Part shown: positions 2,105-56,007 of the stretch, in pieces
How the letters are laid out: every line of letters starts with the position of its first letter
Position numbering within the stretch: the stretch's first letter is position 1
Origin: Escherichia phage KIT06
Length of the DNA: 64,000 nt
Direction: 5' to 3' (one strand)
Sequence record: OQ349392.1
Position numbers and translations under genes: made by a program
The notes under the pieces: generated by a model
What the model was told of the DNA's origin: nothing
The model's database searches: none
The model's input: the letters and a program-made list of their open reading frames with translations, nothing else

Positions 2105-2509
2105 ATGAATATTAACGAATATTATGTTTATGCTGGGGATTATGCAAATCCTTCTCATTTTGAAGGTAATTTAATACCTGATAGAGTTTTTAATACTCCT
2201 TTTGAAGCGTGGAGTTGGGTTGAAAGTAAAAATGGATTTTCTTATCGTTATGTTGAAGTAACTGATTGGAAAGGAACTAAATATCCTAAAGAGCATTATT
2301 ATGTAGACCCATCTAAAGTAAATTTTCTTTTGTTCGCAGGCGATAATTACTATCCTTGCGGTGGATATGATGATTTGATTGCGTATGCTGAAACAGAAGA
2401 TGAATTACGCCAAATTATTGAAGACAATAAATCAAAACGATTTGGTGATAGTTTTGACTGGTGGCAAATCGTAAATGCCCATACACATACTATTGTTGAT
2501 AAAGGTTAA
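2105..2509 (+). CDS. hypothetical protein
   Basis: 134-aa ORF, ATGA overlap with upstream stop. Confidence 0.5.
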   Translation: MNINEYYVYAGDYANPSHFEGNLIPDRVFNTPFEAWSWVESKNGFSYRYVEVTDWKGTKYPKEHYYVDPSKVNFLLFAGDNYYPCGGYDDLIAYAETEDELRQIIEDNKSKRFGDSFDWWQIVNAHTHTIVDKG

Positions 2510-2511
2510 TA

Positions 2512-2802
2512 ATGATTCTTTATGCGAAAGTATCATCCATTGAAAATGGATATAAATATGATCAAGATGCGGCTAAAGCCTTGATTGATGATTATGGCAT
2601 TTTAACATGTTTTGAAGTTGAAAAGGTTTACATTGACCGTTCATCTTCTCAAGTTAAATTAGTGAAGGAAGACCGTAAATTTAATACAGTAAATTTTGAT
2701 TTCTTTATTGAAACAGAAAAAGGTCCTCTTGAATATGATATTTTCAAGAATCCTTTGGGTCTTGAATGTATTAAATATACTTACATTAATGCAGCGTGGT
2801 GA
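2512..2802 (+). CDS. hypothetical protein
   Basis: 96-aa ORF tightly packed with neighbours. Confidence 0.45.
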   Translation: MILYAKVSSIENGYKYDQDAAKALIDDYGILTCFEVEKVYIDRSSSQVKLVKEDRKFNTVNFDFFIETEKGPLEYDIFKNPLGLECIKYTYINAAW

Positions 2803-3320
2803 AAATGAATATTTGTTTGGGTACTACAATTCCGCAGGGTTACGTAATTGATGTCACTACCTGGGAAAATGATGGTGACAACTATAAAACCAAAACACTG
2901 TTTGGCGTAGAAGAGCATGAAATCTTACAATTCCAATATCTTTTAAAGAAGTTTAAAAGCCGACATTCTAGTACTAAAATTGAGCACTATTGTGGTAATG
3001 CTTCGTTCAGTGAGCAATCGCTTTTTATCTATGAATACTTGGTTGAAGGACTGTTCTCAGACCAACTTTATCCAGAATTCATTAAAAAGGTCTTTGATAT
3101 AGAAGTTGACCTTGGTAATAAATCTGAAGAAGATGAAGAACGTGTATTTGACTTATTCTTTGTGAATGGTAATAAAGTGCTTGAAGGACTTATTAATATT
3201 TTAGGTAATGCTTCTGAGTATTATGATTATGATTTTTTGCGTGTAGTTGAGAGTGTTAAATACTCTTATATAGAAGAAGAAATTGTTTTGCCGACCGTTA
3301 AAATGTTTAATTTGCTTTAA
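2796..3320 (+). CDS. hypothetical acidic protein
   Basis: 174-aa ORF overlapping upstream stop. Confidence 0.45.
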   Translation: MVKMNICLGTTIPQGYVIDVTTWENDGDNYKTKTLFGVEEHEILQFQYLLKKFKSRHSSTKIEHYCGNASFSEQSLFIYEYLVEGLFSDQLYPEFIKKVFDIEVDLGNKSEEDEERVFDLFFVNGNKVLEGLINILGNASEYYDYDFLRVVESVKYSYIEEEIVLPTVKMFNLL

Positions 3321-3406
3321 GAATTATTTGTTATTATTAACTCATATCGCATTGATTAATACCCTCTATCATCAAGGGTTCTTTCCTGAGAGCCTTTGTT
3401 AATAAT

Positions 3407-3479
3407 TGGGAATTAGCCAAGTTGGTAAGGCATAGCACTTTGACTGCTAGATGCAAAGGTTCGAGTCCTTTATTCCCAG
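3407..3479 (+). tRNA. tRNA-Gln (anticodon TTG)
   Basis: Cloverleaf folded by hand: acceptor TGGGAAT/ATTCCCA, anticodon stem TAGCA/TGCTA, loop CTTTGAC, T-loop GGTTCGAGTCC. Confidence 0.85.
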
Positions 3480-3480
3480 C

Positions 3481-3567
3481 GCGAGAATGGTCAAATTGGT
3501 AAAGGCACAGCACTTAAAATGCTGCGGAATGATTTCCTTGTGGGTTCGAGTCCCACTTCTCGCACCA
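3481..3567 (+). tRNA. tRNA-Leu (anticodon TAA)
   Basis: Acceptor GCGAGAA/TTCTCGC, loop CTTAAAA, long variable arm, encoded CCA. Confidence 0.85.
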
Positions 3568-3572
3568 AATTT

Positions 3573-3647
<75 letters not shown>

Positions 3648-3657
3648 ATTTAATTTA

Positions 3658-3731
3658 CTCCGTGTAGCTCAGTTTGGTAGAGCGTCTGCTTTGGGAGCAG
3701 AATGTCGCAGGTTCAAATCCTGCCGCGGAGA
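3658..3731 (+). tRNA. tRNA-Pro (anticodon TGG)
   Basis: Acceptor CTCCGTG/CGCGGAG, loop TTTGGGA, T-loop GGTTCAAATCC; no encoded CCA. Confidence 0.8.
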
Positions 3732-3733
3732 CT

Positions 3734-3823
3734 GGAGGCGTGGCAGAGTGGTTTAATGCACCGGTCTTGAAAACCGGCAGTCGCTCCGGCGACTCATAGG
3801 TTCAAATCCTATCGCCTCCGCCA
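3734..3823 (+). tRNA. tRNA-Ser (anticodon TGA)
   Basis: Acceptor GGAGGCG/CGCCTCC, loop CTTGAAA, long variable arm, encoded CCA. Confidence 0.85.
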
Positions 3824-3828
3824 GTTTT

Positions 3829-3904
3829 GCTGATTTAGCTCAGTAGGTAGAGCAACTCACTTGTAATGAGAAGGTCGGCGGTTCGATTCCGTCAATCAGC
3901 ACCA
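3829..3904 (+). tRNA. tRNA-Thr (anticodon TGT)
   Basis: Acceptor GCTGATT/AATCAGC, loop CTTGTAA, encoded CCA. Confidence 0.85.
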
Positions 3905-3905
3905 A

Positions 3906-3980
3906 GGCCCTGTAGCTGGAAGGTTCAAGCAAGCGACTCATAATCGCCAGATGGTGGTTCAATTCCACCCAGGGCCACCA
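3906..3980 (+). tRNA. tRNA with CAT anticodon (Ile via lysidine as in T4, or Met)
   Basis: Acceptor GGCCCTG/CAGGGCC, loop CTCATAA, encoded CCA; occupies the tRNA-Ile position of the T4 array. Confidence 0.75.
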
Positions 3981-3989
3981 AATTAATTT

Positions 3990-4076
3990 GGGGAGTTATC
4001 CCGTAGAGGTAGCGGTGTGGACTGTAAATCCATTGTCATTGCGACTCGGGTGGTTCGACTCCATCACTCCCCACCA
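3990..4076 (+). tRNA. tRNA-Tyr (anticodon GTA)
   Basis: Acceptor GGGGAGT/ACTCCCC, loop CTGTAAA, long variable arm, encoded CCA. Confidence 0.75.
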
Positions 4077-4080
4077 ATTT

Positions 4081-4155
4081 GGATGTGTAGCTCAATGGCA
4101 GAGCGATCGCCTGTTAAGCGATTGGTTATAGGTTCGAATCCTATCACGTCCGCCA
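4081..4155 (+). tRNA. tRNA-Asn (anticodon GTT)
   Basis: Acceptor GGATGTG/CACGTCC (one G-U), anticodon stem ATCGC/GCGAT, loop CTGTTAA, encoded CCA. Confidence 0.75.
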
Positions 4156-4159
4156 AATC

Positions 4160-4235
4160 CGAGGCATAGCTCAGAAGGAAGAGCAAGGACCTTCTAAGTC
4201 CTAGGTCGTAGGTTCGATCCCTATTGCCTCGACCA
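4160..4235 (+). tRNA. tRNA-Arg (anticodon TCT)
   Basis: Acceptor CGAGGCA/TGCCTCG, loop CTTCTAA, T-loop TTCGATC, encoded CCA. Confidence 0.8.
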
Positions 4236-4251
4236 ATTAAGTGAGGAAAAT

Positions 4252-4602
4252 ATGAAAGGTAATGTTTATTTAGTAGTTCATGGTTTAACATTCTATTTTA
4301 ATCACAATGACACTGTTATTTCTGAACGTGTAATTAATTTACTTTATCAGCATGCAGATTATGTTTATGTCGAAAACGAATACGGTCATTGGCAATTTCT
4401 CAAAAATCGTTCATTTGGTTTAGATGGTTACGAATACTTTGAACGTAAAGACCTTTTAGATAAAATTCCATTATCTACACAATATCAAAATCACAAGTCT
4501 TTATATAAATGCCGTCCAATTCGAAATGCTGAATCTGCGTATGAAGTAATTGATTTATGGCGTAAACGTCGTGGACAGGTTGATGCTTTAAAAGAATATT
4601 AA
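4252..4602 (+). CDS. hypothetical protein
   Basis: 116-aa ORF with GAGGAAAATATG ribosome-binding site directly after tRNA-Arg. Confidence 0.5.
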   Translation: MKGNVYLVVHGLTFYFNHNDTVISERVINLLYQHADYVYVENEYGHWQFLKNRSFGLDGYEYFERKDLLDKIPLSTQYQNHKSLYKCRPIRNAESAYEVIDLWRKRRGQVDALKEY

Positions 4603-4604
4603 GA

Positions 4605-4915
4605 AACCGGGTCGCTACCGGTAAGTCGTCGGACTGATGTTCCCTGGGTAAGGACTGGCATTAACAAATCTTTACGATCTGTTAATGTCCCCTTACATCA
4701 CAGCAGAAACGGCGCACCGAATTATCGATTCGAGGAAATATCTTTGCCGTAAGCCGAGTAGCGTTTTTGACGGAACGTTCGGATATGGTCGAGATATGGC
4801 CTTTTAAAAATATTGAGTAGCGTCAACTACTCAATAACCGGGTTCGAATCCCGGCGTTTCGTACAAACACTTGCCTTAGCAGGTGGAACCCCGACAAGGT
4901 TGCCGCAAGGCTTAG
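4605..4915 (+). ncRNA. structured non-coding region, probably stable RNA species (T4 rnaC/rnaD-like)
   Basis: ~310 bp without ORF, tRNA-like T-arm CCGGGTTCGAATCCCGG at ~4838-4854, ends at a strong terminator; T4 has two stable RNAs beside its tRNA cluster. Confidence 0.4.
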
Positions 4916-7661: not shown

Positions 7662-8146
7662 TTTTAAAAACTCGCTGGTATGATTTAGATGATGGGGACG
7701 ATGGCATTCCAGTTGATAGAGTTGACTGGAATGGCTGTTCCGAAGATATGAAAAATTTGTTAATTAGGGAGTTTAGAATGGGATATCAGCCAGTTAAGCC
7801 ATCTACTGCAACAGATGATAAGTTTGTATGTATTCAAAATGGCCGCGCTAAGTTAACGAACGCTGATTGGTTCACAGATAAAATTATGATTCTGTGGTAT
7901 ATTATTAGTCTTCCTGTGACATCATTCGTATTTTACTTTTTTATAAAAAATCCAATGGACAGAATAGGAGATTGGATTCTTTTAACCATACTTGTTAATA
8001 TTTTTACAGCAGCAATATTATCTGGGATATGGTACACGTTCATTGAAATGCCATGGCGGCTACGCAGACAACAAAAGATTTTTGATGAAAAGAAATATAC
8101 TCAAAATTTAAATAACTTTATCACTGAATGCAGGAAATTAAAATGA
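7658..8146 (+). CDS. membrane protein
   Basis: 162 aa, ATGA overlap, hydrophobic central segments. Confidence 0.45.
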   Translation: MILKTRWYDLDDGDDGIPVDRVDWNGCSEDMKNLLIREFRMGYQPVKPSTATDDKFVCIQNGRAKLTNADWFTDKIMILWYIISLPVTSFVFYFFIKNPMDRIGDWILLTILVNIFTAAILSGIWYTFIEMPWRLRRQQKIFDEKKYTQNLNNFITECRKLK

Positions 8147-8583
8147 AAACATTATCAGCTGGTATTATCTTTATGACAGAAGATAAAGATTTATTCATGG
8201 GACGGGTTACTGGTTCTCGTAAGCCTGGAATGATGGCACATCGCTGGGATATCCCAAAGGGCCGCGTAGAAAATTCTGATTTAAGCGCACTAGATGCAGC
8301 ACGAAGAGAATGTTTAGAAGAGACTGGTTTTAACAATTATAATCCAGACCTTCTAGAAGACCTAGGTGTATTTAAATATTCTAGTAATAAAGACTTACAT
8401 CTGTTTTATTATACGATTCCAGTAGAGCATGAGATGTTTAGAAATTGCCATTGCGAGTCTTATTTTGAAAATAAAGATGGCGTTATGATTCCAGAGATGG
8501 ATGCTTTTGCTCTTATTCCTCGTACTCAGTGGCAATATGTGATGGGTCCTTCACTTTACCGAATAATGAACAACCTCTTTTAA
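8143..8583 (+). CDS. nudE: Nudix hydrolase NudE (T4 e.1)
   Basis: Nudix box ...RRECLEETGF...; ATG 8143 overlaps upstream stop; position immediately upstream of e. Confidence 0.75.
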   Translation: MKTLSAGIIFMTEDKDLFMGRVTGSRKPGMMAHRWDIPKGRVENSDLSALDAARRECLEETGFNNYNPDLLEDLGVFKYSSNKDLHLFYYTIPVEHEMFRNCHCESYFENKDGVMIPEMDAFALIPRTQWQYVMGPSLYRIMNNLF

Positions 8584-9114
<531 letters not shown>

Positions 9115-9119
9115 AGTTG

Positions 9120-9148
9120 TTTACTTTCTCCTAGAACTGTGATAGTAT
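9120..9148 (+). promoter_or_regulatory. T4-type early promoter
   Basis: TTTACT-N17-TAGTAT overlapping the e stop; precedes ipII. Confidence 0.65.
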
Positions 9149-9185
9149 ATTCATAGTTACTAATTAAAATATTTAAAGGAACCAT

Positions 9186-9503
9186 ATGAAAACGTTTAAA
9201 GAATTTATTGCAGAATCTGCCCAAGGACAACGTGTAGAAGGCGGTTATATCTGGATTGAACAAGTTGAGCCGCCAAGTCGCACTTCTACAGGTAAATGGA
9301 AAATTACTGTTGATGGTCCTGGTGGTAAACGTAGGACTCTTAAAGAAATTAATGGGTACTATGAAGAAGCTCTTTCGGATGCAGGAACTTACATGATGCA
9401 AATCATGATTAAAAACCCTGAAAACCGTTTTGCAGCTAGAGTTTTCCGACGCATCGGTAATAAACTTTATGACGCATACTCTAAAAACTTCCCTAAAGAA
9501 TAA
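9186..9503 (+). CDS. ipII: internal protein II
   Basis: 105 aa with CTS MKTFKEFIAE. Confidence 0.8.
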   Translation: MKTFKEFIAESAQGQRVEGGYIWIEQVEPPSRTSTGKWKITVDGPGGKRRTLKEINGYYEEALSDAGTYMMQIMIKNPENRFAARVFRRIGNKLYDAYSKNFPKE

Positions 9504-9529
9504 CATGAATTAAAACAATAGGAACAAAA

Positions 9530-10108
9530 ATGAAAACGTATCAAGAATTTATTGCTGAAGCTTCTGTAGTAAAGGCCAAAGGCATTAATAAGGACGAGTG
9601 GAACTATCGTGGTGGAAACGGCTTTGACCCTAAAACAGCCCCTATTGAACGATACTTAGCTACAAAAGCTTCCGATTTTAAAGCTTTCGCTTGGGAAGGA
9701 CTTCGCTGGCGTACCGATTTAAATATTGAAGTTGACGGACTTAAATTTGGTCATATTCAAGATGTTGTTGCTAGTAACTTGGACGCAGCTTTTGTTAAAG
9801 CTGACGGTGACCTTCGTCGCTGGAATTTAAAACTATTCTCTAAACAGAAAGGCCCGGTGTTTGTGCCTAAAGCTGGTAAATGGGTTATTGATAATAAATT
9901 AGCTAAGGCTGTCAACTACGCTGGCCTTGAATTCGCCAAGCATAAATCATCATGGAAAGGTCTTGATGCAATGGCCTTCCGTAAAGAATTTGCTGATGTT
10001 ATGGCTAAAGGCGGCTTTAAGGCAGAAATAGATACCTCTAAAGGTACGTTTAAGGACGCTAATGTTCAGTACGCTTATGCCGTTGCTAATGCAGCCCGTG
10101 GTAATTAA
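9530..10108 (+). CDS. ipIII: internal protein III
   Basis: 192 aa with CTS MKTYQEFIAE. Confidence 0.85.
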   Translation: MKTYQEFIAEASVVKAKGINKDEWNYRGGNGFDPKTAPIERYLATKASDFKAFAWEGLRWRTDLNIEVDGLKFGHIQDVVASNLDAAFVKADGDLRRWNLKLFSKQKGPVFVPKAGKWVIDNKLAKAVNYAGLEFAKHKSSWKGLDAMAFRKEFADVMAKGGFKAEIDTSKGTFKDANVQYAYAVANAARGN

Positions 10109-10110
10109 TA

Positions 10111-10135
10111 AGGCCGATACTTAGGCCTATTTACA
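10111..10135 (+). terminator. hairpin, possible terminator
   Basis: AGGCC-loop-GGCCT after ipIII; weak T-run. Confidence 0.4.
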
Positions 10136-10285
10136 TTCAAATAACATGGGAACAACCTGGACCTCATGATTCTATGAGGGATTCCCGCCAACCTGTAATA
10201 AGGTCGAGCCCAAGTGCGGTAATGGGTAAATACAGAAATGGACAATTCATGCGCCATGGAATGGCCCAAATTTAGAGAGAATAAA

Positions 10286-10825
10286 ATGAGAACATTTTTA
10301 ACTGGTCCTTATCTATCCCTGATGAATGCTTTTACACACCATTCTGATGCTAGAGTAGAAGAAATTTGTAAAAACGATTATATCCCACCATTTGAAGACT
10401 TACTCAAACAGTATTGTACACTTCGTTTAGATGGTGGCAGACAATCTGGTAAATCAACTGCAGTAACTAATTTTGCCGCTAATTGGTTATATGATGGTGG
10501 AACAGTTATTGTTCTTTCTAATACTTCAGCTTATGCTAAAATTTCTGCGGGCCACATTAAAAAAGAATTTTCTCGTTATTCTAGCGATGATATTCGATTC
10601 CGCTTATTTACCGATTCTGTCCGTAGTTTTATCGGTAATAAAGGAAGCAAGTTCAGAGGTTTATTGCTTTCGCGAATTTTGTATATAATTGATGATCCTG
10701 TTAAAGCTCCTGATATGGATAAAATTTACGATATTCATATTGAAACTGTGCACCACTGTTGCAATAGTAAATGCTGCATTGGTGGTATTACTCGTCCACA
10801 GTTTTTCATAATCGGAATGCAATGA
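10286..10825 (+). CDS. P-loop NTPase-like protein with C-terminal Cys cluster
   Basis: Walker A GGRQSGKST, Walker-B-like LYIIDD, HHCCNSKCC; ATG 10286 after GAGAGAATAAAATG. Confidence 0.45.
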   Translation: MRTFLTGPYLSLMNAFTHHSDARVEEICKNDYIPPFEDLLKQYCTLRLDGGRQSGKSTAVTNFAANWLYDGGTVIVLSNTSAYAKISAGHIKKEFSRYSSDDIRFRLFTDSVRSFIGNKGSKFRGLLLSRILYIIDDPVKAPDMDKIYDIHIETVHHCCNSKCCIGGITRPQFFIIGMQ

Positions 10826-11151
10826 TGACAGACACGCAACTTTTCGAATATCTTTATTTTTCGCCAAAAACTGTTAAAAATAAATTGGTGAATCATTTTG
10901 AAATTTTGGCAAATAACAACGTCTTGAGCGAATTTTATCCTAAGCAATACAAACTACAAAAAGGTGTATTCAAAGGATGCAGAGTTTTGTGCACTGCTCC
11001 TAATGTAAGATTAATGAATAAAATTCCATATTTTACCATGGAATTTATTGATGGGCCTTTTAAAGGACTAATCACGCAGAGTTTAATGGCATATGATTCT
11101 GAGCCATTTTTAATTAAAGAGCAATCTTGGATAAATTTATTTTCTAATTGA
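10822..11151 (+). CDS. hypothetical protein
   Basis: ATG overlapping upstream TGA (ATGATG). Confidence 0.45.
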
Positions 11152-11159
11152 GAGGTTAT

Positions 11160-11522
11160 ATGAAAGCATATCAAATTCTTGAAGGCACGCATAAAGGTAC
11201 TATTTATTTTGAAGACGGTATTCAAGCACGAATTATTGTCTCTAAAACTTTTAAAGAGGACTCTTTTGTAGACCCAGAAATTTTCTATGGTTTGCATGCC
11301 CGTGAAATTGAAATTGAAACACAACCTACAGTTAAAATTGAAGGTGGTCAACACCTGAACGTTAACGTTCTGCGTCGTGAAACTCTGGAAGATGCAGTTA
11401 AGCATCCGGAAAAATATCCGCAGCTGACCATCCGTGTATCCGGTTATGCAGTTCGCTTTAACTCTCTGACTCCGGAACAGCAGCGCGACGTTATCGCTCG
11501 TACCTTTACTGAGAGTCTGTAA
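11160..11522 (+). CDS. autonomous glycyl-radical cofactor (GrcA/YfiD-like; T4 Y06I-type)
   Basis: C-terminus ...[59 protein letters not shown] with glycyl-radical motif RVSGY; 3' ~190 bp uses host-like GC-rich codons. Confidence 0.8.
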
Positions 11523-11743
11523 TGGCAAAGATAATTATTGAAGGTTCTGAAGATGTGTTAAATGCTTTCGCCGAATGGTTTAGTAATTCAGGCGAACAGC
11601 AATTTAATGAAGCGTGGAACATGGGTGATATTAGTGGAATTTATCCTACGACAGAAATTTCTGTTCAGGGATATGGCATTCATGAGCCTATTCGTTTAAT
11701 TGAATATGATTTGGGTACTGGTGAGGAAGTAAAATATGATTGA
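11522..11743 (+). CDS. hypothetical protein
   Basis: 73 aa, TAATG stop-start overlap. Confidence 0.45.
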   Translation: MAKIIIEGSEDVLNAFAEWFSNSGEQQFNEAWNMGDISGIYPTTEISVQGYGIHEPIRLIEYDLGTGEEVKYD

Positions 11744-12002
11744 AGATATTAAGGGTTATAAGCCACATACTGAAGAGAAAATCGGTAAAGTGAATGCTAT
11801 CAAAGATGCTGAAGTTCGTTTAGGACTTATCTTTGATGCTTTATATGATGAATTCTGGGAAGCACTAGATAATTGTGAAGACTGTGAATTCGCGAAGAAT
11901 TATGCTGAAAGCCTTGATCAGTTAACTATTGCTAAAACTAAACTCAAAGAAGCCAGTATGTGGGCTTGTCGTGCTGTGTTCCAACCAGAGGAAAAATATT
12001 AA
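11736..12002 (+). CDS. hypothetical protein (vs-block; Acb2/vs.4 candidate by position only)
   Basis: 88-aa ORF. Confidence 0.45.
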
Positions 12003-12280
12003 TGGCTCAATTAAGCGCAGGGTTTGGTTATGAGTATTATACTGCCCCTCGTCGTGTATCTGTTGCTCCTAAGAAAATTCAAAGTCTTGATGATTTCCAG
12101 GAAGTAATTCGTAACGCTTTCCAGGACTATGCGCGTTATCTTAAAGAAGATTCACAGGACTGTCTCGAAGAAGATGAAATTGCTTACTATGAGCAGCGTC
12201 TTGAACAGCTTAAAAACTTACATGAGGTTCGTGCAGAAGTTTCAAAGTCTATGAATAAATTGATTAGATTTAAAGAATAA
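12002..12280 (+). CDS. hypothetical protein (vs-block)
   Basis: 92 aa [13 protein letters not shown]...; ATG overlaps upstream stop. Confidence 0.5.
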
Positions 12281-12283
12281 CTG

Positions 12284-12312
12284 TTTACTTTTCCTCTTGA
12301 CTGTGGTATAAT
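12284..12312 (+). promoter_or_regulatory. T4-type early promoter
   Basis: TTTACT-N17-TATAAT (perfect -10) upstream of regB. Confidence 0.7.
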
Positions 12313-12339
12313 TTTTCTATCAGTTAAGAGGAGAATAAC

Positions 12340-12801
12340 ATGACTATCAACACAGAAGTTTTTATCCGTCGAAATAAGCTCCGTCGTCACTTTGAGTCGG
12401 AGTTTCGTCAAATTAACAATGAGATTCGTGAGGCATCAAAAGCAGCAGGGGTCTCATCGTTTCATCTAAAATATTCTCAGCATCTTCTTGATCGTGCAAT
12501 TCAACGGGAGATTGATGAGACATATGTTTTTGAATTATTCCATAAAATAAAAGACCATGTTTTAGAAGTTAATGAATTCCTGAATATGCCTCCACGCCCT
12601 GACATTGACGAGGATTTTATTGATGGGATTGAATATCGTCCTGGGCGTTTAGAAATCACAGATGGAAATCTTTGGCTTGGATTTACAGTTTGTAAACCTA
12701 ATGCGAAGTTCAAAGACCCGTCGCTTCAATGCAGGATGGCAATTATCAACAGTCGTCGTTTACCGGGAAAGGCTTCTAAGGCAGTAATTAAAACTCAATG
12801 A
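12340..12801 (+). CDS. regB: RegB endoribonuclease
   Basis: 153 aa MTINTEVFIRRNKLRRHFESEFRQINNEIREASKAAG... as recalled for T4 RegB. Confidence 0.9.
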   Translation: MTINTEVFIRRNKLRRHFESEFRQINNEIREASKAAGVSSFHLKYSQHLLDRAIQREIDETYVFELFHKIKDHVLEVNEFLNMPPRPDIDEDFIDGIEYRPGRLEITDGNLWLGFTVCKPNAKFKDPSLQCRMAIINSRRLPGKASKAVIKTQ

Positions 12802-14539: not shown

Positions 14540-15121
14540 ATGGCGAGTTTAATTTTTACTTATGCAGCAATGAATGCTGGAAAATCTGCTTCTCTTTTGA
14601 CTGCTGCGCATAATTATAAAGAACGCGGAATGGGTGTATTAGTTCTTAAACCTGCTATTGATACTCGCGATTCTGTCTGTGAAGTCGTTTCTCGCATTGG
14701 AATTAAGCAGGAAGCGAATATTATTACGGATGATATGGATATTTTTGAGTTCTATAAATGGGCTGAAGCACAAAAAGATATTCATTGCGTATTTGTAGAT
14801 GAAGCTCAGTTTTTAAAAACTGAACAGGTGCATCAATTAAGCCGAATTGTCGATACATACAATGTTCCTGTTATGGCTTATGGTCTAAGGACTGATTTCG
14901 CTGGAAAATTATTTGAAGGTTCTAAAGAACTTTTGGCGATTGCAGATAAACTTATTGAACTAAAGGCAGTTTGTCATTGCGGTAAAAAAGCGATTATGAC
15001 GGCTCGATTAATGGAAGATGGAACACCAGTTAAAGAAGGTAATCAAATCTGTATTGGTGATGAAATTTATGTTTCTTTGTGCAGAAAACATTGGAATGAA
15101 TTAACTAAAAAGCTCGGTTAG
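14540..15121 (+). CDS. tk: thymidine kinase
   Basis: 193 aa with P-loop NAGKSAS; MASLIFTYAAMNAGKSASLL... as recalled for T4 Tk. Confidence 0.95.
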   Translation: MASLIFTYAAMNAGKSASLLTAAHNYKERGMGVLVLKPAIDTRDSVCEVVSRIGIKQEANIITDDMDIFEFYKWAEAQKDIHCVFVDEAQFLKTEQVHQLSRIVDTYNVPVMAYGLRTDFAGKLFEGSKELLAIADKLIELKAVCHCGKKAIMTARLMEDGTPVKEGNQICIGDEIYVSLCRKHWNELTKKLG

Positions 15122-55215: not shown

Positions 55216-55841
55216 TGCTCTATCAAATGCACAAGTGTAAAGACACGTACAATTATAAAGGTGCCCAGTGTTATATCATCAATCGTGAAAACGTGGGTCC
55301 AGGTCATTCGCATCAATCACGGTTTGTATTCGTTAAAAATAATGAAATTATAGCAGTTGCTAATTACATGCTTGTGACTAATGATGTTAATCCGGTGCCT
55401 TTTACGTATTATAATCTAATGGATTTGGCGTACGATTATAATTGGTTTAATCATGATAATTTGGCTCATATTGAAGGCGTAGGATTTGACATCTCTTATT
55501 CTAGTTACTCGTTGTGTCCTATGAGCCGAGCTCATAAAGAGCCTGAATATTTTTCATTTCGTCGGCGTGTAGACTTTGAACGCAGCACAGAGTATATCGG
55601 TGGAATTTTTGTTAAAGATAATCGAATTACTCGCATTATTTATCCTTTGGGCTGTGGTCAAAAAGATATTGATGTTGATTTAGACTTTACTGAAAACATC
55701 ATTAATCATATTGCTTCTGTGTATTTTGATATTGATCATAAAATTGTAATATGTGGATATGAATTACCATCAGAAAAACAGTCTAAAGTGAATGTTTCTA
55801 TTGATGACCAAATTTTTAATGCTTTTATGAATAGAGGTTAA
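55215..55841 (+). CDS. hypothetical protein in the T4 61.2 position (AdfA-like anti-DarT candidate by synteny)
   Basis: 208-aa ORF between sp and primase; assignment is positional only. Confidence 0.4.
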   Translation: MLYQMHKCKDTYNYKGAQCYIINRENVGPGHSHQSRFVFVKNNEIIAVANYMLVTNDVNPVPFTYYNLMDLAYDYNWFNHDNLAHIEGVGFDISYSSYSLCPMSRAHKEPEYFSFRRRVDFERSTEYIGGIFVKDNRITRIIYPLGCGQKDIDVDLDFTENIINHIASVYFDIDHKIVICGYELPSEKQSKVNVSIDDQIFNAFMNRG

Positions 55842-55842
55842 T

Positions 55843-56007
55843 ATGAAAACGTTTAAAGAATTTATCAAAGAAGATATGGTCGCTGGAGATTCAGGTGGTA
55901 ATCCTGAAAATATCTCTACTGGAACAACGTCAGGCGCTGTAGTAAATAAAGGTCCTGAACAGATTCCTAAAAAGAAAAAAGAGGAATCTAAAGAAAAAGA
56001 AGAGTAA
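55843..56007 (+). CDS. small CTS-bearing protein (54 aa)
   Basis: Not in the track; MKTFKEFIKE N-terminus identical in type to internal-protein CTS; Lys/Glu-rich tail. Confidence 0.4.
   Translation: MKTFKEFIKEDMVAGDSGGNPENISTGTTSGAVVNKGPEQIPKKKKEESKEKEE

Follow-up and report, generated by a model that had tools for sequence, protein, structure and literature searches.

The vs.8 gene at a T4-type internal-protein locus apparently lacking ipII and denV in Escherichia phage KIT06

Gene order and identity of the P-loop gene

In the RefSeq genome of T4, the genes in the region of interest are ordered e, ipIII, ipII, denV, vs.8, vs.7 and vs.6, with further genes up to regB. The product of denV, endonuclease V (DenV; Pfam Pyr_excise, PF03013), is a 138-aa all-helical pyrimidine-dimer glycosylase/AP lyase that contains no P-loop. 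The locus that holds the genes for internal proteins (IP) is polymorphic in T4-type phages according to Repoila et al. (1994), as that work is cited in PMC4122927, and phages of this type are described as gaining and losing small cassettes through PeSLs, which are repeated regulatory motifs (Arbiol et al., 2010, PMC2839356; Comeau et al., 2014, PMC4122927).

We compared this locus to the corresponding region in a stretch of 64,000 nucleotides from Escherichia phage KIT06 (OQ349392.1), referred to here as the window. A megablast search with positions 9100-12400 retrieved 932 phage records, of which the best was Escherichia phage EP01, with 97.7% identity over 100% of the query, and the surrounding genes identify the window as a piece of a Tequatrovirus (T4-type) genome. 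On the left side, nudE (8128-8583) is followed by e, the gene for T4 lysozyme (8620-9114, plus strand), which was identified from its ORF translation and a DNA identity of 92% to the T4 e region, and which represents the left anchor of the internal-protein locus. Thereafter follows a gene for an internal-protein-like product of 105 aa (9186-9503, plus strand; phrog_3966, E 2.4e-33), with the N-terminus MKTFKEFIAE, which is absent from this position in T4 but present in EP01 and IME340, and then ipIII, the gene for internal head protein III (9530-10108, plus strand), the product of which is 94% identical to T4 IpIII over 192 aa. On the right side, we identified an ortholog of vs.7 (10822-11151, plus strand; phrog_2049; 96% identity to T4 Vs.7), vs.6/GrcA (11148-11522; Pfam Gly_radical), vs.5 (11522-11743), vs.4/Acb2 (11736-12002; Pfam Acb2_Tad1_hairpin, E 7e-20), vs.3 (12002-12280) and regB (12340-12801), and thereafter vs.1, vs, tk.4 and the thymidine kinase gene tk (14540-15121). 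A cluster of ten tRNA genes at 3407-4232 (Rfam RF00005, 30-74 bits) is the counterpart of the T4 tRNA region.

Between ipIII and vs.7, an ORF on the plus strand extends from an ATG at 10286 to a TGA at 10823-10825, with the stop codon overlapped by the start of vs.7 (ATGATGA), and encodes a single-domain P-loop (ASCE) protein of 179 aa. The initial annotation had described this protein by three motifs, and all three were recovered where it had placed them. These are the Walker A motif or P-loop, GGRQSGKST (aa 50-58; 10433-10459, plus strand), which contains an Arg as in the SRQLGKT of T4 gp17; the Walker B strand, LYIIDD (aa 132-137; 10679-10696, plus strand), for which the family consensus is LYIIDEP and the allele in the window thus has E137D; and the Cys-rich sequence HHCCNSKCC (aa 156-164; 10751-10777, plus strand), which is located in a variable surface loop that is modelled with low confidence.

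A tblastn search with T4 Vs.8 (NP_049732, T4p119) matched the window at 10238-10822 with 87% identity (E 2e-116), and the protein is a full-length match, over residues 3-179 of 179, to phrog_1488 (E 1.7e-77), to which no function has been assigned in PHROGs. In T4, EP01, vB_VIPECOOM01, IME340 and distant contigs, as in the window, the gene is positioned between the e/IP locus and the segment from vs.7 to regB. The family is further defined by a Walker A motif of the form DGGRQSGK(S/T), which is intact in the window, and a Walker B motif of the form hhIIDEP, which is present with the E137D change. The downstream flanks in T4 and the window are the same (vs.7, vs.6/GrcA, vs.5, vs.4/Acb2, vs.3 and regB), and the Walker A and B motifs as well as the Cys loop are common to the two proteins, whereas the upstream neighbour is denV in T4 and ipIII in the window. 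In total, homologs to Vs.8 were identified by tblastn in 1,009 phage records, from phages of Escherichia, Shigella, Klebsiella, Enterobacter, Yersinia, Salmonella and Serratia and other T-even-type phages. On the basis of these sequence comparisons, we consider the P-loop gene to be the ortholog of T4 vs.8, which in T4 is the normal right-hand neighbour of denV.

The two proteins differ in their annotated start. T4 Vs.8 is annotated with a length of 219 aa, including about 40 extra N-terminal codons, whereas the protein in the window starts with MRTFLTG. The ATG at 10286 is preceded by a Shine-Dalgarno-like GAGAG at a spacing of 6 nt, and the homologs, even those with only 38-44% identity, all begin at the equivalent Met; it is therefore the best start. 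An alternative in-frame ATG at 10238, which would give a protein of 195 aa, has no Shine-Dalgarno-like site. The N-terminus of the distant homologs in the family alignment is M(R/K)(T/Y/F)(F)LT. A conserved leader block precedes the gene (10148-10285, plus strand), and corresponds to the first ~40 codons of vs.8 in T4. Residues 1-32 of T4 Vs.8 matched the window at 10174-10269 by tblastn in another frame than that of the main ORF, and the junction alignment (T4 NC_000866, 64790-64912) shows that the upstream frame is opened by a 10-nt tandem duplication (TTATAGAG) specific to T4. The leader stretch is out of frame in the window as well as in other phages, in which the homologs begin with MRTFLTG or MKxLT. 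Judging from the alignments, the conserved Vs.8 protein appears to be the 179-180-aa form, and the start of the 219-aa protein annotated in T4 is probably too far upstream. The predicted RNA fold of the leader (180 nt) is not unusual (z = -0.49), the leader has no match in Rfam, and promoter-like sites within it are not above the shuffled expectation. GenBank labels on the homologs include "endoribonuclease", "large terminase subunit", "DNA packaging protein" and "endonuclease", none of which is supported by the present analysis.

Predicted fold and activity of Vs.8

The Vs.8 family is small, and was represented by 27 clusters in a set of 5.8 billion proteins and by 51 representatives in a set of 1.84 billion proteins, nearly all of which are stand-alone proteins of 150-185 aa. 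The sequence DGGRQSGK is invariant in the family alignment. Among 58 members, R52 is conserved in 57, K56 in 52, R113 in 50, R124 in 47 and D136 in 49, with a Glu in the other nine, while E137 is found in 48 members, G177 in 50 and Q179 in 44. The conservation of both Walker motifs throughout the family implies that they are not chance occurrences.

The AF2 model of Vs.8 (pLDDT 80) consists of one domain with five strands, and the protein ends directly after the fifth beta-strand. The top structural matches were all to ASCE-class proteins, namely helicase domain 1, terminases and RecA/F1/KaiC, with Sf6 gp2 and P74-26 TerL among the proteins named in the fold comparison, and included no kinases. 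Foldseek searches against PDB and BFVD agreed, and also matched many uncharacterised proteins of 140-180 aa from large phages. Matches to this fold are to be expected for ASCE/RecA-like domains in general, and a sequence search against solved structures produced only P-loop noise (E ~0.07).

Several of the sequence matches were to large terminases. Terminase_6N scored 14.4 bits on the protein in the window, which is below the Pfam cut-off of 22, and produced sub-threshold matches to 10 of 17 members, with a best E of 6.8e-5, while the match to phrog_2 (TerL) had an E of 6e-5. In an alignment with hhalign to the large terminase of T4, gp17 (E 0.0026, with a probability of only 11.6%), GGRQSGKS was paired with LSRQLGKT, R124-G125 with R-G and IIDD with YIDE. 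Vs.8 thus shares with gp17 the ASCE fold, an Arg-containing Walker A motif and a Walker B DE pair, but it is composed of 179 aa as compared to 610 aa, its scores are all below the curated cut-offs, and its gene belongs to the vs/regB accessory block rather than to the packaging operon. We rejected Vs.8 as a large terminase subunit, given that it falls below the gathering threshold and contains neither ATPase subdomain II nor the RNase H-like nuclease domain. The SF2 helicases, which have two tandem RecA-like domains with motifs I-VI, were also rejected. Only domain 1 of the SF2/DEAD-box helicases aligns to Vs.8, which has no second RecA domain and none of the motifs Q, Ia, Ib and IV-VI, and a monomer of Vs.8 can therefore not act as a helicase.

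The picture that emerges from the motifs and the modelled fold is that Vs.8 would be a small stand-alone ASCE ATPase with one RecA-like domain, a Walker A motif of the terminase type (G-R-Q-x-G-K-S/T) and a Walker B motif of the form hhhhDE. R113 and R124-G125 are candidates for arginine fingers that would act in trans, and the C-terminal G-x-Q is predicted to be placed at the sensor/motif III position. Because Vs.8 has only one domain, hydrolysis would require oligomerisation, and we give about an even chance to the proposal of a minimal ASCE ATPase with an active site that is completed only upon oligomerisation. A wider and more doubtful proposal, which we put forward tentatively, is that Vs.8 and its distant relatives may together constitute an unrecognised class of single-domain, terminase-like ATPases that are minimal in size (about 140-260 aa), with a task in host takeover or counter-defence in large myoviruses. 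The class as proposed includes phrog_2586 and many of the 140-180-aa proteins in BFVD from T4-like, jumbo and SPO1-like phages.

A full-text search of the literature found nothing on the vs.8 gene, and a function for the distant relatives was also absent from PHROGs. In the genomic contexts of distant phages no constant partner gene emerged, and we therefore propose no partner for Vs.8. We considered and rejected Vs.7 as an obligatory partner, as the next gene is a vs.5 homolog in STML-198 and a vs.1 homolog in another distant phage. Among very distant Vs.8-like proteins, one is encoded beside a RecA-like recombinase on a contig that is not T4-like (2302-4818), and another beside a Gly_radical protein of 217 aa and an HNH protein in a divergent T4-like phage (2840-4516). 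Vs.8 is a widely conserved T-even gene product with a clear ATPase signature, which makes it a reasonable target for knock-out and biochemical studies.

Allele differences and alternative roles of Vs.8

Compared to its homolog in EP01, Vs.8 in the window has the private changes S127L, E137D, S141A and V175I. Of these, E137D (codon 137, nt 10694-10696) affects the residue after the Walker B Asp, which is the predicted catalytic Glu. Asp is present at this position in only 3 of the 58 family members, and Glu is present in EP01, T4, IME340, vB_VIPECOOM01 and the 1,051-member cluster P0001. Goetzinger and Rao are said to have found in 2003 that even E256D in T4 gp17 abolishes function. By comparison with this loss of function in gp17, the allele in the window might hydrolyse ATP poorly; E137D may weaken hydrolysis, and the copy in the window may be catalytically weak or inactive. 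In T2, vs.8 (PV648363.1, 2890-3536) is broken by two frameshifts, and a separate T2 entry in BFVD is a fragment of 57 aa. The gene is probably a pseudogene in T2, although further genes, including hoc, are also split in the same record, which leaves some room for sequencing errors. The two observations in T2 suggest that vs.8 is dispensable under some conditions, and E137D together with the T2 frameshifts indicates that decay of the gene does occur. If the proposed class of minimal ATPases is real, its task could be approached via the naturally occurring E137D allele and the pseudogene in T2.

The altered Walker B motif in the window and the frameshifts in T2 would also fit a Vs.8 that binds a nucleotide without being an enzyme, and serves as an NTP-dependent switch, an adaptor or a decoy, for example by titrating a host factor or a defence ATPase, with the gene possibly decaying in some lineages, this allele included. 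Such a role would suit a block that is rich in accessory and counter-defence genes (Acb2/vs.4, the internal proteins and the macro-domain gene tk.4), and PADLOC reported a weak match to the P-loop of PtuA (E 0.006). However, the PtuA match covers the generic P-loop only, and we rejected the link to defence that it might have indicated. Moreover, the catalytic set is conserved family-wide (K56, D136, E137 in 48 of 58 members, the arginines and G-x-Q), which argues for hydrolysis in most members. A purely nucleotide-binding role is for these reasons rather unlikely, and an ATPase remains the reading that we prefer.

The Cys cluster might indicate a different activity, in which Vs.8 is a metal-binding (zinc or iron-sulfur) protein that binds nucleic acids and depends on HHCCNSKCC. 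This sequence contains four Cys and two His within 9 residues, and the CC pair is kept in most of the close Tequatrovirus alleles. In the family as a whole, however, four Cys are found in the loop of only 3 of the 58 members and none in 26, and there is no set of four Cys/His ligands that is conserved across the homologs. The loop varies in length and is modelled with a pLDDT below 50 (residues 157-168). We know of no zinc-knuckle pattern with the spacing CCxxxCC. The match to Pfam Toxin_19, a conotoxin-like family, was below the threshold (19.6 vs 23.2 bits) and was rejected as an artefact of the Cys composition. As judged from the model and the alignment, HHCCNSKCC is best described as a lineage-specific surface loop, predicted to be disordered, rather than as a conserved metal site or the functional core, and a metal-dependent function of Vs.8 is very improbable. 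We attach equally little credence to Vs.8 being a small-molecule or nucleotide kinase of the kinase-GTPase P-loop class, with a role in nucleotide metabolism like that of the nearby tk: the protein is small, it has a P-loop and its gene is located a few kb from the thymidine kinase gene, but it did not match any kinase family in Pfam, kinases were lacking from the top structural matches, and the Walker B DE pair of Vs.8, in which the Glu is conserved, is typical of ASCE ATPases.

Absence of the ipII and denV cassette and comparison to relatives

The DNA of the window was aligned to the T4 genome with blastn. The matching segments covered 8503-9218, corresponding to e and the first bases of ipIII, 9508-10125, corresponding to ipIII, and 10148-11200, which aligned from the base immediately after the denV stop codon. 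Positions 9219-9507, which code for the 105-aa phrog_3966 protein, had no blastn counterpart in T4. Conversely, 878 bp of the T4 genome, comprising ipII and denV, had no counterpart in the window, where about 22 bp (10126-10147) were found instead. The break points of the alignment thus coincide exactly with the two ends of the segment with ipII and denV in T4. The junction (10109-10147, plus strand) contains an ipIII-distal hairpin at 10111-10128, in addition to the short segment without a counterpart in T4.

The initial annotation had noted that no DenV-like ORF is present between ipIII and the vs/regB block, and this held not only for that interval but across the 64-kb window. The best tblastn match to T4 DenV in the window had an E of 1.5, and the best match to DenV of vB_VIPECOOM01 had an E of 0.010 (27 bits), both at the level of noise. 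The six-frame translation of the window was also searched with an HMM derived from four DenV sequences, with a best score of 12 bits as compared to 294 bits for IME340, which served as the positive control. The P-loop ORF had no Pfam match to Pyr_excise, and its product has no similarity to T4 DenV, the only link between the two being that their genes are neighbours in T4. From the alignments it appears that the window lacks the ipII and denV cassette, with no new gene inserted at the site and with another small IP gene carried instead, and that the phage probably belongs, with T2 and EP01, to the T-even phages that naturally lack denV.

We examined the arrangement of denV and vs.8 in the relatives. 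The window covers 64 kb of the genome, and denV might be located beyond it, but the place of denV in all T4-type genomes examined is the locus between e and vs.8. Genes for both Vs.8 and DenV are present in T4, vB_VIPECOOM01, IME340 and a distant T4-like contig. In vB_VIPECOOM01, the arrangement is that of T4, with ipIII, an ipII-type IP gene, denV and vs.8. The order in IME340 (NC_054904.1, 6514-7534) is e, ip, denV, ip, IP105, ipIII and vs.8, with a direct junction from ipIII to vs.8 as in the window. The slot occupied by denV is thus located between e and the IP genes in IME340, where two small IP genes flank it, and between ipII and vs.8 in T4. The distant contig, in which Vs.8 is 39% identical, encodes lysozyme, two small ORFs, DenV, IPI, one small ORF and Vs.8. 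The local layout in EP01 is fully the same as in the window, and neither tblastn nor the HMM identified DenV in the complete 165.6-kb genome of this phage. In T2 (PV648363.1), an IP gene is followed directly by vs.8, and DenV was found nowhere in the 163.9-kb genome by the same two methods. The direct junction from ipIII to vs.8 was spanned by one continuous match in at least 48 records, including some RefSeq/GenBank duplicates.

More broadly, the number of records with Vs.8 as compared to DenV was 550 vs 479 for Escherichia, 79 vs 65 for Shigella, 40 vs 25 for Enterobacteria and 162 vs 44 for Klebsiella. These counts by host name provide a lower bound on the absence of denV, and more than 200 records with Vs.8 must therefore be without DenV. 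The absence of denV, with or without that of ipII, is a common polymorphism in T-even phages that has been known from its phenotype since T2 was compared to T4, and is as such not a new observation.

While the absence of denV noted in the initial annotation stands, its suggestion that the P-loop gene has taken the place of denV does not, since the gene is vs.8, a conserved gene of the T4 vs block that adjoins intact denV in T4. A replacement in which denV gave way to an acquired P-loop/Cys protein that fulfils its role, perhaps through another DNA-repair activity, is almost certainly not what occurred: the gene is indeed the first after ipIII, where denV had been expected, and P-loop proteins often act on DNA, but vs.8 adjoins or coexists with an intact denV in the four denV-bearing genomes above, the homology to T4 DNA resumes exactly after the denV stop codon, about 1,000 T-even-type records contain vs.8 whether or not they have denV, and the EP01 allele differs from alleles in denV-bearing genomes at scattered positions only, with no distinct clade that carries new motifs. 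The apparent replacement is an artefact of an imperfect picture of the T4 gene order. We have good confidence in the overall explanation, namely a T4-type locus with an ortholog of vs.8, from which the ipII and denV cassette is absent and in which Vs.8 is most likely an ASCE ATPase. Its main value lies in the correct annotation of vs.8 as the normal neighbour of denV.

Streisinger in 1956 and Harm in 1963 reportedly found T2 to be more sensitive to UV than T4, with which the absence of DenV from the T2 genome agrees. The phage in the window would, being denV-less like T2, be expected to be about as UV-sensitive as T2. More generally, the lineage with EP01 and T2, without the pyrimidine-dimer glycosylase, should exceed T4 in UV sensitivity, a matter of relevance where such phages are used or disinfected.

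The locus differences fit, at the level of sequence, with a shuffling of cassettes in the known hyperplastic IP region. As in the described IP-locus polymorphism and PeSL system, IP genes and denV are present, absent or relocated between the anchors e and vs.8, and the cassettes are flanked by repeated IP 5' leaders and intergenic motifs. The junction in the window differs in that no intact promoter-stem-loop pair was demonstrated there. The junction sequence is CTATTTACATTCAAATAACATGGG. A motif, TATTTACATTTAAA, is located upstream of ipII and also at the 3' end of denV of the vB_VIPECOOM01 type. The junction includes the 10-nt sequence TATTTACATT (10130-10139), which is matched both by the 3' end of denV of the vB_VIPECOOM01 type and by the generic IP upstream motif. 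The match to denV could be a scar of a deletion or recombination event or be due to chance, and the reading as a scar stays ambiguous because T2 has only the right-hand part of the junction. DenV of T4 and DenV of the distant T4-like contig (3090-3509) are 81% identical, as compared to 39-64% for the neighbouring Vs.8, e, RegB and NudE, a difference that is compatible with cassette exchange or with a stronger constraint on DenV.

The IP genes share common 5' leaders of ~45 bp with 88-94% identity, which are potential substrates for recombination. Repeated leaders of the IP type, consisting of the upstream motif and a start like MKTYQEFIAE, were observed in the window at 921-968, 1254-1301, 1631-1669, 9171-9226, 9520-9561 and 55840-55887, which reveals a second IP cluster at about 0.9-1.7 kb as well as a single weak copy at about 55.8 kb.
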